A DNA stretch of 64,000 nt, taken from the NCBI GenBank assembly GCA_964016885.1, contig OZ024751.1:27342001-27406000 (forward strand). The letters are read 5' to 3'. Shown in pieces: positions 40,245 through 61,300 of this stretch. The first letter of the stretch is position 1; the number at the start of each line of letters is the position of its first letter. Position numbers and translations under genes: made by a program. A model generated the notes under the pieces. That model was not told where the DNA came from. It ran no database searches and saw only the letters and a program-made list of their open reading frames with translations. This DNA is from Eledone cirrhosa. Its lineage: Eukaryota.

Positions 40245-43200
40245 TCATGATCATGTGATCATCATTTTACACCTATTTTCCATCTATCTGTCTCTCCCAC
40301 CTCTATTCATCAGCCCAGTTAAAATTATCCGCCTCATTGGTGCTGATACAGTGGAAGACATCATCTTTCAGCGTAGTTCAACAAAACTGAAGTTAACCAA
40401 GCGTGTCATTGAAGATGGAGATTTTTCATTGAAGTCAAAGAAGACATCCCAGTTTTCTTCTGTCACTGATGATAAAGTCAAGGTAAGACTCACTGGTGAA
40501 CGGGCACATGTATCTAGGAATACATTATCTAATGTGTCTTTTCAATTTTTTTATTGTTTTCCTAAATTGGTGTTTGGAAGAATGTTCAACCCTAGAAACT
40601 GAAAGGACTCTTCAGTTGTAGGACATCTCTTGCATCAAGGACATATCATCTCTTGTGTCATGATTAATTCTACTTAGTAACTGCTGTAAAGGGGTTGCTG
40701 TAGGTATGGGCATCCAACCATAGAAACCATGGCAAAGAAAGGGTTGCATGAAAGGACTCTTCAGTTGTGTTAAGTGCATGATAACCTCTCTAGTGCTGAT
40801 GCCATGGTTGGTGTCAGGAAGGGCATCTAGCTGTAGAAGCTATGTCAAAACAGGAATATATGTAAATGACACATGGCCATTAGTTGGTCTAGTAGGACTA
40901 GCTCCAATTAAGAACTATCTTGGTCTGTAATAACCCATGTCAGTCTAGGAGGACTAGCTCTAATTAAAAACTATCTTGGTCTGTAACCCATGTAAAAACA
41001 GACATAGAAGTATGATAGCAGTGCTCTTGATTGTCTTCAGGGCCTCTGAGACTTGTAAGAGAGAGCGAGGAATATATCTTCTAAAGAGAGACCAGGTGAC
41101 AAATTAACTCTACCAATCAAATAAACCATGGTTCGATTTGAACTCAGAATGTTAAAAGGATGAAATATATACTGCAAGGCATCTCATCTGATAGTGTAAC
41201 AATTCTGCTCTAGATTGGTAGTATTATCTCACCTGATAGTCTAACACTGGGACTATATTTTATCATCCTCATCTCCAAGTCACAAAGCTTGGAACACAAA
41301 GTTGACCTCTTTGGGATTTCAACTCAGAACCAACAGATCAAATACAACAAAGCAGTCTATTCTATATTCTAATGACACGGTCAGCCCACAACCTGTTTAA
41401 AATAGTAAAGTGGTGGTGGTGATAGTGTGATGGTGGTGATGGTGATAATAGTTGTGGTGATGGTGGTGATTGTTGTGGTAGTGGTGGTGGTGGTGGTGAT
41501 GATAGTTGTGGTAGTGATAGTGTGATGGTGGTGATGGTGATGATAGTTGTGGTGGTGATATTGTTTATGTTTCATATGATGTGGTGACAGTAATGTTGTT
41601 GTTTTGCAGTTAAAAGATATTCTGAAGTTTGGGGTTGATAAACTCTTAGAGAATCCATCTGATGACAGTTCCTTGTCTGTTGACTTCACCTCTGTATTGG
41701 GCAGCTCGGACAACAACCAGTGGACAATCTCTGGTCAGGATGGAACAGCAGATACAATTACACAACGGGTAATATATTGTTATATCATTCTACAACTATA
41801 TTTGACAATGTTGGATTAGAATATAGAATTATATTACCATATTTAGTAATGTTATACATGGTCGTGTAGGTGTCACGGAAAAAAAGCACCCTGTCCACAC
41901 AGTAAAGTGGTCATGTTGGTGTCACAACAAAAAGCACCTAGTCCTCTCTGTAAAGTGATCATGTGGTTGTCATAACAAAAAGCACCCAGTCTATACTATA
42001 AATGTGGTTCAAGTTAAGGAGGACATCCAGCTGTAGAAACCATGAGCAAGAGATGGTCACCTGTATGAGCAAGACCTGGTCACCTGCATGAGCAAGACAT
42101 GGTCACCTGATCTGACAATGTGACAACACGTCTAACCCATACTAGTGTGGAAAAATGGCCATAATTATTGATATATCACTGTGTGGCCATAGGTGGAGAT
42201 TTTGTGTCACTCTATGACCATATATGGTAATAATATATTACAATGTTACACCAGTGTATGTTAGCTGTGAACCAGTATGTCTATATATGGTGCTGTTGCT
42301 ACATACACACTTATACACACATACATACACTCACAGACACACCACACACACACTCACATACTCACAAACACACACTCACAGACATACACACACACTCGCA
42401 GACACACACACACACACATAGATACACAATCACACACACTCTCACTCACACACGCAGACACTCAAATACAGATATACTCACACACTCACATACAGATATG
42501 CACAATCACACGCACACACACAGAAAAACACATTGTCATTTCTTGCCCTTCTTCTCCAGTGTTTCAAACGTGATGACAAGGAGGACCAACCATCTACAAT
42601 TTACAAATTTGAGGGTCTCGACTACTCAAAGGCGCCATCTGCGACTGATCTCGATGCTTTTGACAAACTCGGTGATGGTAAGTAGGAAGGGTTTCATTCT
42701 CACAGATTCTTTGTTTCATTTTGTTGCTAGGTCAAAGAGATAATGATAGTGTCCATTACCTTGGTCTCTGAGACTGGTGGGAGGGTGAGGCAACAACCAT
42801 GATACTAAAACTTGTGGGAGGAAGTCAGACCCCATGACCTATTTCAGGGCCACTGAAGTAGTGTGAGGGAAGTCAGACCCCATGACCTATTTCAGGGCCA
42901 CTGAAGTAGTGTGAGGGAAGTCAGACCCCATGACCTATTTCAGGGCCACTGAAGTAGTGTGAGGGAAGTCAGACCCCATGACCTATTTCAGGGCCACTGA
43001 AGTAGTGTGAGGGAAGTCAGACCCCATGACCTATTTCAGGGCCACTGAAGTAGTGTGAGGGAAGTCAGATCCCATGACCTATTTCAGGGTCACTGAAGTA
43101 GTGTGAGGGAAGTCAGACCCCATGACCTATTTCAGGGCCACTGAAGTAGTGTGAGGGAAGTCAGATCCCATGACCTATTTCAGGGCCACTGAAGTAGTGT

Positions 43201-45743
43201 GAGGAAGTCAGACCCCATGACCTATTTCAGGGCCACTGAAGTAGTGTGAGGGAAGTCAGATCCCATGACCTATTTCAGGGTCACTGAAGTAGTGTGAGGA
43301 AGGGCAGTCCCCATGACCTATTTCAGGGTCACTGAAGTAGTGTGAGGAAGGGCAGTCCCCATGACCTATTTCAGGGTCACTGAAGTAGTGAGGGAAGTCA
43401 GATCCCATGACCTATTTCAGGGCCACTGAAGTAGTGTGAGGGAAGTCAGACCCCATGACCTATTTCAAGGTCACTGAAGTAGTGTGAGGAAGGGCAGTCC
43501 CCATGACCTATTTCAAGGTCACTGAAGTAGTGTGAGGAAGGGCAGTCCCCATGACCTATTTCAAGGTCACTGAAGTAGTGTGAGGAAGAGCAGTCCCCAT
43601 GACCTATTTCAGGGTCACTGAAGTAGTGTGAGGAAGGGCAGTCCCCATGACCTATTTCAGGGTCACTGAAGTAGTGTGAGGAAGGGCAGTCCCCATGACC
43701 TATTTCAGGGTCACTGAAGTAGTGTGAGGGAAGTCAGTCCCCATGACCTATTTCAGGGTCACTGAAGTAGTGTGAGGGAAGTCAGACCCCATGACCTATT
43801 TCAGGGTCACTGAAGTAGTGTGAGGGAAGTCAGTCCCCATGACCTATTTCAGGGCCACTGAAGTAGTGTGAGGGAAGTCAGTCCCCATGACCTATTTCAA
43901 GGCCACTGGAATGAAACTGTTTGATATATTTATTGGGTTGAGTCATAAATAATTTCCGTTTGTTGTAACTACACATTTCAAACTTTCAATTACCTGATTG
44001 GAGAGATTCTTCATCGGTCATTCTTATTTCATTAGTGAAAGAGTGCACATCATAATTTAATCAATGGTTTCACATCCCTAAAATGGAGGAACTGAAAGTA
44101 CATATTTGACACGTAATGTTGTGGGAGTTTAAGAATAAGAAAAAAGCTACAGAAACAGCTGAGAAAATGTGTAGTGTTTATAGCCAAAGTGTCATTACTG
44201 ACCGCCAAGTCCGAAATTTTGTTCTGGGTATATGTCATTGAGAGATGAACCCAGACCAGGATGCTCATCAGACCTCGATCAAGATACTTTAAGAGAAGTG
44301 GTGGAATGTAATCCACGCAAAAATACTTGAGAATTAGCACTTGACATCCAAATCCACAATCTGCCGCGACTTGGAAAAGATAGGAAAAGTGAACAAACTG
44401 GGGCATTTGGGTTCCTCAAACTCTTAGTGAGCAGAATAAGAAAGATTGCATATCCATAGCAACAAGTCTTCTTTCAATGCAAAAGAAATGACCCGTTTCT
44501 CAAGAATATCATTAAAGGTGATGAAAAATGGGTCTTTTGTGACAATGGTCAACACAAAAGGCAGTGGATTGACAAGGATAAATCTCTGCAGTTTACCCCA
44601 AAGGTGGAGCTTCCTGGAAGAAAAGTTATGCTGTGTGTATGGTGGGATCACTGCGGTATTATTTATTTTGAGTCTTTAAACTGAAATCAGACACTCAATG
44701 CAGACTTATACTCTCAACAGCTCCAACATGTGCATGAAAATCTTCTAAGAAAACACCCTGCACCCATCAACAGGAGAAACCTTGTGCTTCTCCATGATAA
44801 CACAAAGCCACACTCAGCAATATTGGATTTAGGTTGGTCTGTTCTACCCCATCCACCATATTTATCAGACCTTGCACCAAATAATTTTCATCTTTTTTGT
44901 TCTCTACAAAATGCTCTGAATGGCAAAAAATTTCTCAAGAAGATCAGCTGAAAACGTTTGTGGAAAACCTCTTGAGCTCAAAACCAGCTGAATTTTACTT
45001 GAGAGGAATCAACAAGCCACCTGGTAAATGGTAACAGGGGGTTCAAAATAATGGCAGATATACTATTGATTGAAATTAATTCATTGTTAAATTATTCATG
45101 AATAAATTATTTTATTAAAACGGAAATTATTTATGACTCAACCCCATAGAATCCCCAGTGTTAAACCAAAGACGAAATCTCTCCGACATGTTGCCATCAA
45201 CTTCTCAGCAGACTCGGGTAAAACTCTCCGCAGAACAGATTAAAGAACGAGAAAAGAAGGTAAGCAATTTTGGAAGAATTCTAAAATATACGTGTGTATA
45301 TATATATATATATGTATGGTGGCGTGTTAGTGTAATGGTAACACATTGGTCCAGCAAATTAAAGATTAATATTCGAAAAACTCAGATTACAATTATTGTA
45401 TTCAGCCATGTAGAGTGAAAATCTTTTTTTTATATATATATATATATATATTTCAATAATAATATTTTATATTATATGGATATGTTTATATTCGATTGTG
45501 TATTTTTTTATATATATCCTTTATATTATATATTTATGTGGGGTTTGTATACATATATACTTATATAGCAGCCAAATCTCACTCAAATTGGAGCTCATTA
45601 TGTAGAAAGACTAATTGGATAATCTTGTCGGTTCTAGATACAGTATATATAAAAATATAGCAAATGATGGGATGGTCACATCTGGAACACCTTTGATCCT
45701 AACTCTGCTACATCTTGATATAGTCCTTTCATCTCTCTCTCTC

Positions 45744-58340: not shown

Positions 58341-61300
58341 AAACTTTTCTACAGAAATACATAACATATATATATATAGAGAGAGAGTATGGCAGTTCTT
58401 GAATTATTGGTAATTCCATTCCAATAATGGTTCTTCCTCATATAGAACCATAGAGTTTTTTCTCATTTAATTTTAATATAGATATTGTTTCTCTGAGAGA
58501 TGTCTTTCATTGATATGTTTGGGTATTAGTGACTAATTAATATATAGAGATATAAGAAGTACACTAACGACTGAAGTTTATGATAGAATTATATCTATAT
58601 GGGGTGTGTAACGGAGACTGCACCAGTGTGTATAAATGTATACACATATCTAATATATACACATGTAGACATGCCAGAAAATATTTCCCTGTAAATTGAT
58701 TATCATTTTTTTTTAATCTCGGGGAAATTTGTATTTTCTGGCATGTCTACATATTAGATGTGTGTATATATTTATACACACTGGTGTTCTTTCGGTTGAA
58801 CTCTCTATATTTATACAGATATAACTTTATCATACACTTCAACTACTAGGGCACTTCTTAATTAATTACAAGTGCTAATTATATGCAAATTAGTATGTAA
58901 ATTAGTGTGTAACCAAAACTGTGCCAAAGTGTAAACAAGCCAGAAAATACGAATTTCACTGTAAATTGAAAACAAAATGATAAACATCTCATTATATGTC
59001 TTAATTAATTACAACACAAGTGCTAATTATATGTAAATTAGTATGTCCATTTCAGAATAATATCAAGAGAGAATGGTTATATAAACCCATGAACTACATG
59101 GATGATAGACACATCTGATGAGAGCCCAATAAGTTCTGAGAATCTATCATTTTTTTTCAATTTACAGTGAAATCCATATTTTCTGACATGTTTACATGTG
59201 TATATATTTTTACTGTTTTATCCTAGATAAGCAATCTCTTGCAGCCCAGTGGTTTTACTTGTCTTACCTAAAACTCTGTAAAGATCCACATGCAAAACAG
59301 CATTTAGCTGTAGAATACTGCCTCAAAAGGTTTCATCCAACCCATGCCAATAAAAGTAGATGTAAAAACAGGGATGATATTTATATTCTGAAAGAGACTG
59401 AAATCATTTGCTGTGCCTTATGTAATATCTCTTACCAATTCTCTTTATACAGCCAGCATCCACTTACCTAGGATTGGACATGATACACCATCATTTAACT
59501 GGTATGGAACTGAGAGACTAATCCGGAAACATCTAGCAGCGAAAGGCATCCCTACTTATATGTATCCTTATCTTACACCCTTTCAACACCAAACTGACCC
59601 TGCTAGTCATATATTGTTAAGACTCACTGCTATGACACCAACTCTGTATCTAACTTAACTCTAACTCCAGATATTATTATCCTCGGCGAAGTCATTTAAA
59701 ACGAAGGAGGTCATCACAAGAAGCTGGTCCTTCTACAAAAGGTCAGTTGTCTGTTAGTGGAGGTAGTGGTGGTGGTGGGTAGTAGTGGTGGTGGTGGTGT
59801 CTAGTGTTTCTATACCACTACCTCACACTGCCCTCTCCTGTACCCCTACTCACACATCCTTATCTCAACTCTTTCGTTTGCAGATGCTGCATCACCAACT
59901 GCTGCGTCACCAAGCCATGCTGCATCACCAACTGCTGCGTCACCAACTTGCTGTACATCTGTGGATACCAAGAAGGTCTCCAACATACTGTTGGAGACCT
60001 TCCAAGGACTCTCCCTATATCTCTGGAAGTGTAACTCTGAAGACAGCAACATCTACAAACGATATATTATTGCATATCCTTTTTTTTATTTTCTATTTTA
60101 TTGTAGTGTGCATGGCCTACTGGTTAGGGTGTTGAACTCAATCATAAGGTTGTGTGTTTGATTCCTAGATCAGGTGGCACATTGTGTTCTAGAGCAAGAT
60201 GTTTCATTTCATGTTAGGATTAGAGGCCACCCTCATTAAAACACCTGATTAAGCTGCTGTGAGATGTAATTGCTGAGCAGGTCAGTTCAATCTGATGATG
60301 CTGTAATTGCAGGTTTTGCTGTAGAAATAGGTTGTCATGTTTGGTTACCATCCTTAACAGTGTACTTATGATGGAGAGTTTCATTCTGATATTCAGGAAA
60401 GTACAACTCATGTTGTTGTCTGTGTCAACAGAGACATAGAGGTGAGTAAACCTTTAGAGATCTGATTCATTTTCCATATTAGCATGGGTTAGACAAATTG
60501 TCCTATTGTGAGACAAGCCAGATCAAATGAAATGCCTTGCTCATACAGAACTGATTTGGGCTTGGTTTCTATGGCAGGATGCCCAACCACATTTACACAG
60601 TAGACTGGGTGCTTTTTGTCATGACACTAGAAGGACAACTTTACAGTGTGTACTGGGGTGCATGGGGATTGATGTAGATCTAGGGTGGGGTGTTAGGATG
60701 TGGGTAGTGTGTTAGTACTAGTAGTATAGGTTATATAACTGTTGTTAGTAACATAACACTAGTATTGTGTTGTACTGACAAGATAACTTATACTGCCACC
60801 CTCCATGTAGGTTTTACTTTCCTCAAGCTGAAATATAATCAACAGAGATAACCCTTCTCTACCCCACATTAACATAAGACACCCAGGTTTCTGTAACATA
60901 TTTCTACATGTGCAAGTCCTAGTAGTTAGTGTTTTTAGTCATGAATTTGATTCCAAGACCAAATTTACATTGGGTCTTTGAGTATGGCACTTCATTTTAC
61001 ATAGCTCCAGTTCACTCAGCTGTTAATAAGTAGCAGCAGGCGAGGGAGAAACCTGTCTATCCTGTCTAGAAAGGGGGCTTGGATTCTCATTTAACTCCTC
61101 CTGAAACCAGGATAAGCTCTGAATTAATGAGCCTCTAGACTTAAGATGAACTTTAACTTTTAAATGTCTGCTGGGGCCATGAGGCAGACAAACCCATAAA
61201 CAATACCATCCAGTTCCACTGTGAAAAGGCTCAGCATGGCCAACTGGCTGGTCCCTCCTCATAGTGGTGTGATAGGGGTTCGGCACAGCCAATGGGTGCC

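Follow-up and report, generated by a model that had tools for sequence, protein, structure and literature searches.

Introners such as IE1 of Micromonas are described as co-opting the AG of their 3' splice site from the target-site duplication (PMC11282704). In Caenorhabditis elegans, Tc1 copies beside splice sites give rise to GU-AG splices and hybrid SOS splices, intronic Tc1 was reported not to be SOS-spliced, and the authors speculate that inverted terminal repeats (ITRs) carry usable splice sites (PMC12779559). 3' splice signals derived from transposable elements (TEs) have been reported for MER58A in COL4A5 and AluY in CEP290 (PMC7951965) and for MIR/AluSp in BLOC1S2 (PMC6822395).

Here we describe a decayed mariner located in the TAG acceptor of intron 14 of the CHD1L/ALC1 gene of Eledone cirrhosa, in a window (the whole stretch of DNA analysed) of 64,000 nucleotides. 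Our preferred reading, with a probability of about 0.65, is that the TA duplicated on insertion likely re-created the acceptor AG and that a weak splice signal was neutrally replaced by the AT-rich, AG-free end of the mariner. With introners the locus shares an acceptor AG from the duplicated target and a TIR directly upstream of it. Introners, as PMC11282704 presents them, insert into exonic sequence and thereby generate introns, as a repeated family habit, whereas here an existing intron, with the host's own donor, gained a new 3' end at one of 41 family ends screened, and neither the creation of an intron within an exon nor genome-wide repetition was found. The mariner case works like introner-type AG co-option and is not an introner. 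The alleles Tc1::dpy-19(n1347) and Tc1::Ngfp likewise have a Tc1/mariner element at an acceptor that is removed with the intron, and are described as young laboratory alleles with mixed, imprecise isoforms (PMC12779559), whereas the present copy is old and has one precise junction. The COL4A5, CEP290 and BLOC1S2 cases also use TE sequence as a 3' splice signal, a DNA transposon included; according to their descriptions the TEs create pseudo-exons or new alternative exons, whereas here a probably ancestral coding exon keeps its boundary. SETMAR is a fusion of host and transposase sequences. CSB-PGBD3 is such a fusion as well and shares with the present locus a sense-oriented DNA transposon in an intron of a chromatin/repair gene (PMC3459987), whereas here the transposase is broken and no fusion contig was seen.

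An AG from a target duplication and TE-derived 3' signals are already known, and the case shows tolerance rather than new function. In the literature searched, in which subscription journals and older Tc1 and maize work were thinly covered, we found no report of a long-decayed mariner occupying the TA of a TAG acceptor that already existed. The locus offers a tidy natural example of a Tc1/mariner element that entered an intron's most sensitive dinucleotide and persisted with the exon boundary intact. It also provides a small minigene test case for the speculation in PMC12779559 that transposon ends act as splice signals, as against TIR pairing that hides the mariner.

The CHD1L/ALC1 gene, of a type whose products carry an SNF2 ATPase and then a linker and a macro-type domain, has 25 exons on the + strand, from 17603 to about 61700 of the window. 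Its joined exons form an open frame of 1,014 aa, approximately 82% identical over 943 residues to the proteins of Octopus bimaculoides, O. sinensis and O. vulgaris; the identity was calculated from a translation that ended at residue 948 owing to a 2-nt slip at an exon boundary. In a protein search with the exon query, named CHD1L proteins ranked first with O. bimaculoides on top, and tblastn against the window placed the O. bimaculoides CHD1L colinearly with the 25 exons; membership in CHD1L/ALC1 was assigned on this orthology and colinearity. Exon 14 as a protein query gave no match. The donors of exons 14 and 15 are G/GTAAGT (phase 1) and AAG/GTAAGC, respectively. The residues at the exon 14/15 junction are LGD/ESP here and LGE/EAP or LGE/ETP in the three Octopus species. 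This alignment suggests that the boundary at 45150 predates the insertion and is likely ancestral, and that the CAG at 45156–45158 was not the old acceptor.

An earlier sequence-only reading had placed a mariner between TA at 43931–43932 and TA at 45147–45148, followed by a G at 45149 that completes the acceptor of exon 15 of a DNA-repair gene. We confirmed each of these points, the exon being coding exon 15 of 25 of CHD1L/ALC1, and the coordinates are summarized in Table 1. That reading had also proposed insertion into the TA of a TAG. When the mariner and one TA were removed on paper, an ordinary TAG acceptor was restored, an anatomy that supports the proposal and makes regeneration of the AG by the duplicated TA likely.

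Table 1 Features of intron 14 of CHD1L and its flanks (window positions)
Feature	Positions	Strand	Basis or remark
CHD1L coding exon 14	42560..42677	+	tblastn with O. bimaculoides CHD1L; X24 contig leaves at 42677
48-nt minisatellite, 22.8 copies	42820..43908	+	19 copies with TATTTCAG decoy acceptor
Stranded native 3' end of intron 14	43909..43930	+	putative old acceptor region
Left TA of target-site duplication	43931..43932	+	sequence
Mariner (DD34D family) copy, sense to host gene	43933..45146	+	TIRs, family alignment, Pfam matches
Left TIR	43933..43961	+	0 changes in 28 nt vs family
Transposase pseudogene, stops and frameshifts	44083..45073	+	Pfam, chain matches, family alignment
Candidate branch-point zone	45110..45134	+	motif scan, alignment
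Right TIR, last 29 nt before TAG	45118..45146	+	derived C at 45145
Acceptor TAG, right TA of duplication plus host G	45147..45149	+	sequence, X24 contigs
In-frame alternative CAG	45156..45158	+	no use seen in X24 contigs
CHD1L coding exon 15 (of 25)	45150..45259	+	X24 contigs, tblastn, single copy in G000

The mariner is 1,214 bp long with 29-nt TIRs, TA on both sides and a broken transposase. The inverted arms (43931–43961 and 45118–45148, 31 nt including the TA) are 97% complementary, with a lone mismatch at 43934/45145. Fragments of the window matched PF01359 (E 2e-13) and PF17906 (E 4e-10), and the mariner matched chains of Mos1 and SETMAR with E values of 5e-15 to 3e-14. The family has at least 61 matches in the genome assembly (G000), where other copies are 70–95% identical over pieces; a search with another query recovered nearly the same copies, with one new locus among 30 fetched. 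The majority sequence of 29 other copies gave a consensus of approximately 1.28 kb with a 342-aa frame, and on this consensus, the present copy being broken, we read the WVPHTL and YSPDLAPS motifs and a spacing of 34 residues within the final pair of catalytic Asp residues (DD34D). The TA duplication, the 29-nt TIRs with one mismatch and a transposase with HTH, WVPH and YSPDLAP features place the copy among the DD34D mariners; with those of the Mos1/Hsmar1 type, the family shares the TA duplication, TIRs of approximately 29 nt, both motifs and the Asp spacing. TA was present at 32 of the 41 family ends screened. The nearest database proteins of a sister copy were 55–62% identical, and the named ones were from bees and wasps. 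One family copy (L013, G000:C3:263282639-263286612) is rearranged, with an internal inversion and near-perfect TIRs.

Compared with the family consensus, the present copy has 85 substitutions in 1,212 sites (7.0%), six deletions and two insertions, and 24 of 36 CpGs have been lost. At a rate of 4.4e-9 substitutions per site and year, as given for insects and molluscs (PMC12130899), this divergence suggests an insertion age on the order of ten million years, a rough figure that CpG decay inflates.

Among the 24 sequencing runs listed, none was recorded as RNA, and seven were compared with the locus. One run (X24), of unrecorded library type and from the same study and organism as the DNA runs, was treated as RNA because its contigs join exons at GT..AG. 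One X24 contig followed 42559–42677 without difference and continued with 29 letters identical to 45150–45178; the 29–30 letters on the exon-15 side fall under the 31-letter threshold for a bridge. A second contig covered 45149–45257, including the nine bases ahead of the alternative CAG, and joined exon 16 at GT..AG (45259^45837). The junction 42677^45150, which the sequence-only reading had put forward as a check, is present, and use of the TE-end acceptor was observed in spliced RNA in this one run of contigs. The in-frame fallback acceptor that it had proposed exists as a CAG, but no contig used it: neither an acceptor at 45159 nor the exon-15 skipping also raised there, nor a retained intron 14, was seen in the X24 contigs, which come from one run and lose rare forms. 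Presumed-RNA runs of other organisms (X1, X9, X13, X19 and X20) gave no usable contig at the locus, the sole match in X1 being a 33-nt low-complexity piece. The X24 contigs break exactly at the acceptor, at 45149, suggesting that exon 15 is also reached by another route, either in unspliced RNA or from a further exon upstream; no such route occurred among the X24 joints listed.

Spliced RNA from an allele lacking the mariner would carry the same junction and tell nothing about how the mariner itself is spliced across, and the X24 sample (S19) differs from the sample of the DNA runs (S18); no X24 piece, among those listed, matched the present mariner copy without differences. We nevertheless consider a polymorphic insertion very unlikely. 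A divergence of 7%, together with several deletions, indicates that the mariner inserted long ago, pieces of DNA run X21 were identical to the present copy (44232–44471), no mariner-skipping joint was found among the 15 joints listed of a total of 24, and exon 15 is single-copy in G000.

To score the acceptor, we used a matrix of 21 U2 introns of CHD1L (21 of 24 kept; two U12-like introns and the test intron were dropped). At a width of 20, the present acceptor and the empty site both scored -2.8 and the family end scored -3.8, each exceeding only one of the 21 left-out native scores, on a small matrix and with a stranded flank that has itself decayed since insertion. The empty site scored higher than the present site at a width of 14 and lower at a width of 25. 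All three scores lie near the bottom, suggesting that little was lost by the insertion. Of the 217 AGs in intron 14, 38 scored higher than the AG in use, and 19 of these 38 are minisatellite decoys. This pattern suggests definition of the site by exon 15 and its strong donor. No AG occurs for 90 nt upstream of the acceptor; in the family consensus, the AG-free stretch is 110 nt.

According to the preferred reading, the mariner would have entered the TA of a TAG acceptor, and duplication of the TA would then have re-created the AG, the order of events that we infer. Its AT-rich, AG-free end would be a neutral stand-in for an already weak acceptor. The branch point would lie in the last 40 nt or so of the mariner (candidates 45114, 45118 and 45133), where a motif scan found yUnAy-like sequences at -36 and -17 and TTAA at -32. 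Exon definition, helped by the shortness of exon 15 and its AAG/GTAAGC donor, would pick the acceptor, with first-AG scanning through the 90-nt AG-free stretch, and the TIR sequence would be under no selection except against gaining a competing AG. The mariner in the acceptor is most likely a tolerated accident and not a tuned adaptation. Assuming 30,000 TAG acceptors, approximately one in 10,000 TA-targeted insertions would strike one, a rough chance that makes one case per transposon-rich genome unsurprising. Eight of the 41 family ends read TAG, and in this crude screen only the present one was then followed by an exon-like stretch.

The sequence-only reading had gone further and proposed exaptation, with the right TIR taken over as a 3' splice signal and its lone mismatch adding a pyrimidine next to the AG. 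Position 45145 is A in 77% of aligned family copies and C in none of the 29 other rows, indicating that the C is derived and, as the proposed comparison with the family consensus required, specific to the present copy. The A-to-C change adds 0.95 bit in the 21-intron matrix, and the last 40 nt of the mariner have not acquired an AG, as happened in 8 of 15 other intact right ends; the TIR CpG was also kept while only 12 of the 36 CpGs of the copy survive. However, 12 of 51 possible single changes match or beat this gain and 21 raise the score, and the adaptive half of the claim about the mismatch is not supported; at position -5 the 21 U2 introns have C in four cases and A in three. The other 7 of the 15 right ends are AG-free too, and the AG-free end fits mild constraint and also chance. 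The right end showed no extra conservation relative to other family copies: the last 40 nt have two changes against 2.75 expected (P 0.47), the last 90 nt three against 4.6 (P 0.32), and the right arm alone gave P 0.36. The acceptor is still among the weakest of the gene, and the family TACTAA at -37..-32 has been lost in the present copy, with T at 45115. Adaptive tuning of the TIR therefore appears unlikely to us, and exaptation overstates what looks like tolerance.

Family right ends (L002–L030) carry TACTAA at -37..-32 relative to the TAG that follows, are AG-free over 110 nt and look acceptor-compatible. TACTAA at such a distance precedes only 5 of 2,285 intronic AGs. We rejected a pre-adapted family end: none of 23 native introns has TACTAA, the present copy lost the motif, and the motif was chosen after the fact.

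Folding of 43890–45200 paired 45120–45144 with 43935–43959 at a predicted probability near 1.0 (duplex -45.4 kcal/mol), and the predicted stem continues across the duplicated TA to cover the AG as well. Such a stem, if formed in time, would leave the right TIR unable to act as a single-stranded branch point or pyrimidine tract. This counts against the tolerance reading and against the earlier statement that the right TIR must supply both, which we do not uphold. It also raises the alternative that the TIRs pair in the pre-mRNA, loop out the 1.2-kb mariner and bring the native signals (43909–43932) beside the AG again; selection for pairing would then preserve both TIRs, and splicing would still use the original branch point and tract, 1.2 kb upstream. 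The U-C mismatch at 43934/45145 would loosen the stem at its base, which holds the AG. In the model, the mismatch made by the derived base lies two pairs from the end of the TIR, and with it opening of the AG costs about 1.9 kcal/mol less (3.7 instead of 5.6 at 37 °C, 6.1 instead of 8.0 at 15 °C). By the sequence matrix and by the folding model alike, the lone TIR change goes in the favourable direction, a further point against tolerance.

Conservation of the TIR pair bears on the same alternative. The two TIRs have one change in 56 nt, against 5.6 expected from 11 copies, one with a doubtful arm (P 0.02), or 4.3 from all 43 aligned arms (P 0.068). This, too, speaks against tolerance and weakly hints at pairing, the unchanged left TIR being 1.2 kb from the acceptor. 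Such a low number of mismatches between left and right TIR was reached by none of the 11 other copies with both ends; the span filter had excluded L013, which has one mismatch. According to PMC12779559, pairing between the ITRs of a transcript has a function both in C. elegans and in human cells. However, the P values are marginal and clean TIRs were probably the reason why this mariner was chosen, 5 of 43 28-nt tiles of the present copy also have no change, and the TIR pairs of L013 and L021 have only two changes. Even with the mismatch, the AG is predicted to be approximately 90% paired, and the native stretch is poor, with 9 of 20 pyrimidines at -24..-5 (empty-site reading) and no yUnAy at -42..-15. 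Equilibrium folding also ignores co-transcriptional protein binding. We regard looping out, and selection on both TIRs for it, as improbable; if true, the inverted repeats of the transposon would have hidden it from the spliceosome for millions of years.

Paired TIRs might also trigger AKAP17A/CAAP1/RTCB-type excision, before or together with splicing from the host donor. Hybrid splices are reported for the dpy-19(n1347) allele, in which Tc1 and an acceptor are 11 nt apart (PMC12779559), and the TIRs here are intact and predicted to pair. The SOS hallmark is imprecise, non-GT-AG joints near ITRs, whereas the lone junction here is GT-AG at the ancestral site, in contigs that miss rare forms. 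We give such hybrid removal hardly any weight.

Intron 14 (42678–45149) comprises 140 nt of unique sequence, the minisatellite, 22 nt of unique sequence and the mariner. The minisatellite ends 22 nt upstream of the mariner, and its 19 decoy acceptors outscore the real one. The 48-nt unit was found at no other locus in G000, and its expansion may have followed displacement of the old acceptor region. One frame of the unit resembles the start of exon 15 of O. bimaculoides (35 of 2,000 shuffles and 2 of 101 windows; P about 0.02), and no resemblance was found to the exon-15 start of O. sinensis or O. vulgaris. The better DNA match of the unit is the intron sequence just upstream. An origin of the minisatellite as a "mirage", with the unit copying the adjoining intron–exon junction, is not supported; the unit has no DNA likeness to the present exon 15.

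Three further introns of CHD1L showed minor peculiarities. Intron 15 contains a very high-copy repeat (window 45330–45400) with a DNA depth above 200,000 in X21, SINE-like by eye. Intron 21 (window 59562–59670) starts with GTATCCTT and is a U12-like GT-AG intron. Intron 23 (window 60074–60365) is AT-AC; its donor is ATATCCTTT, and a branch motif, TCCTTAAC, immediately precedes the AC. For introns 21 and 23, the U12 consensus motifs served as reference. The frame is open only with the AT-AC boundary, and one O. vulgaris model (P0105) reads into intron 23.
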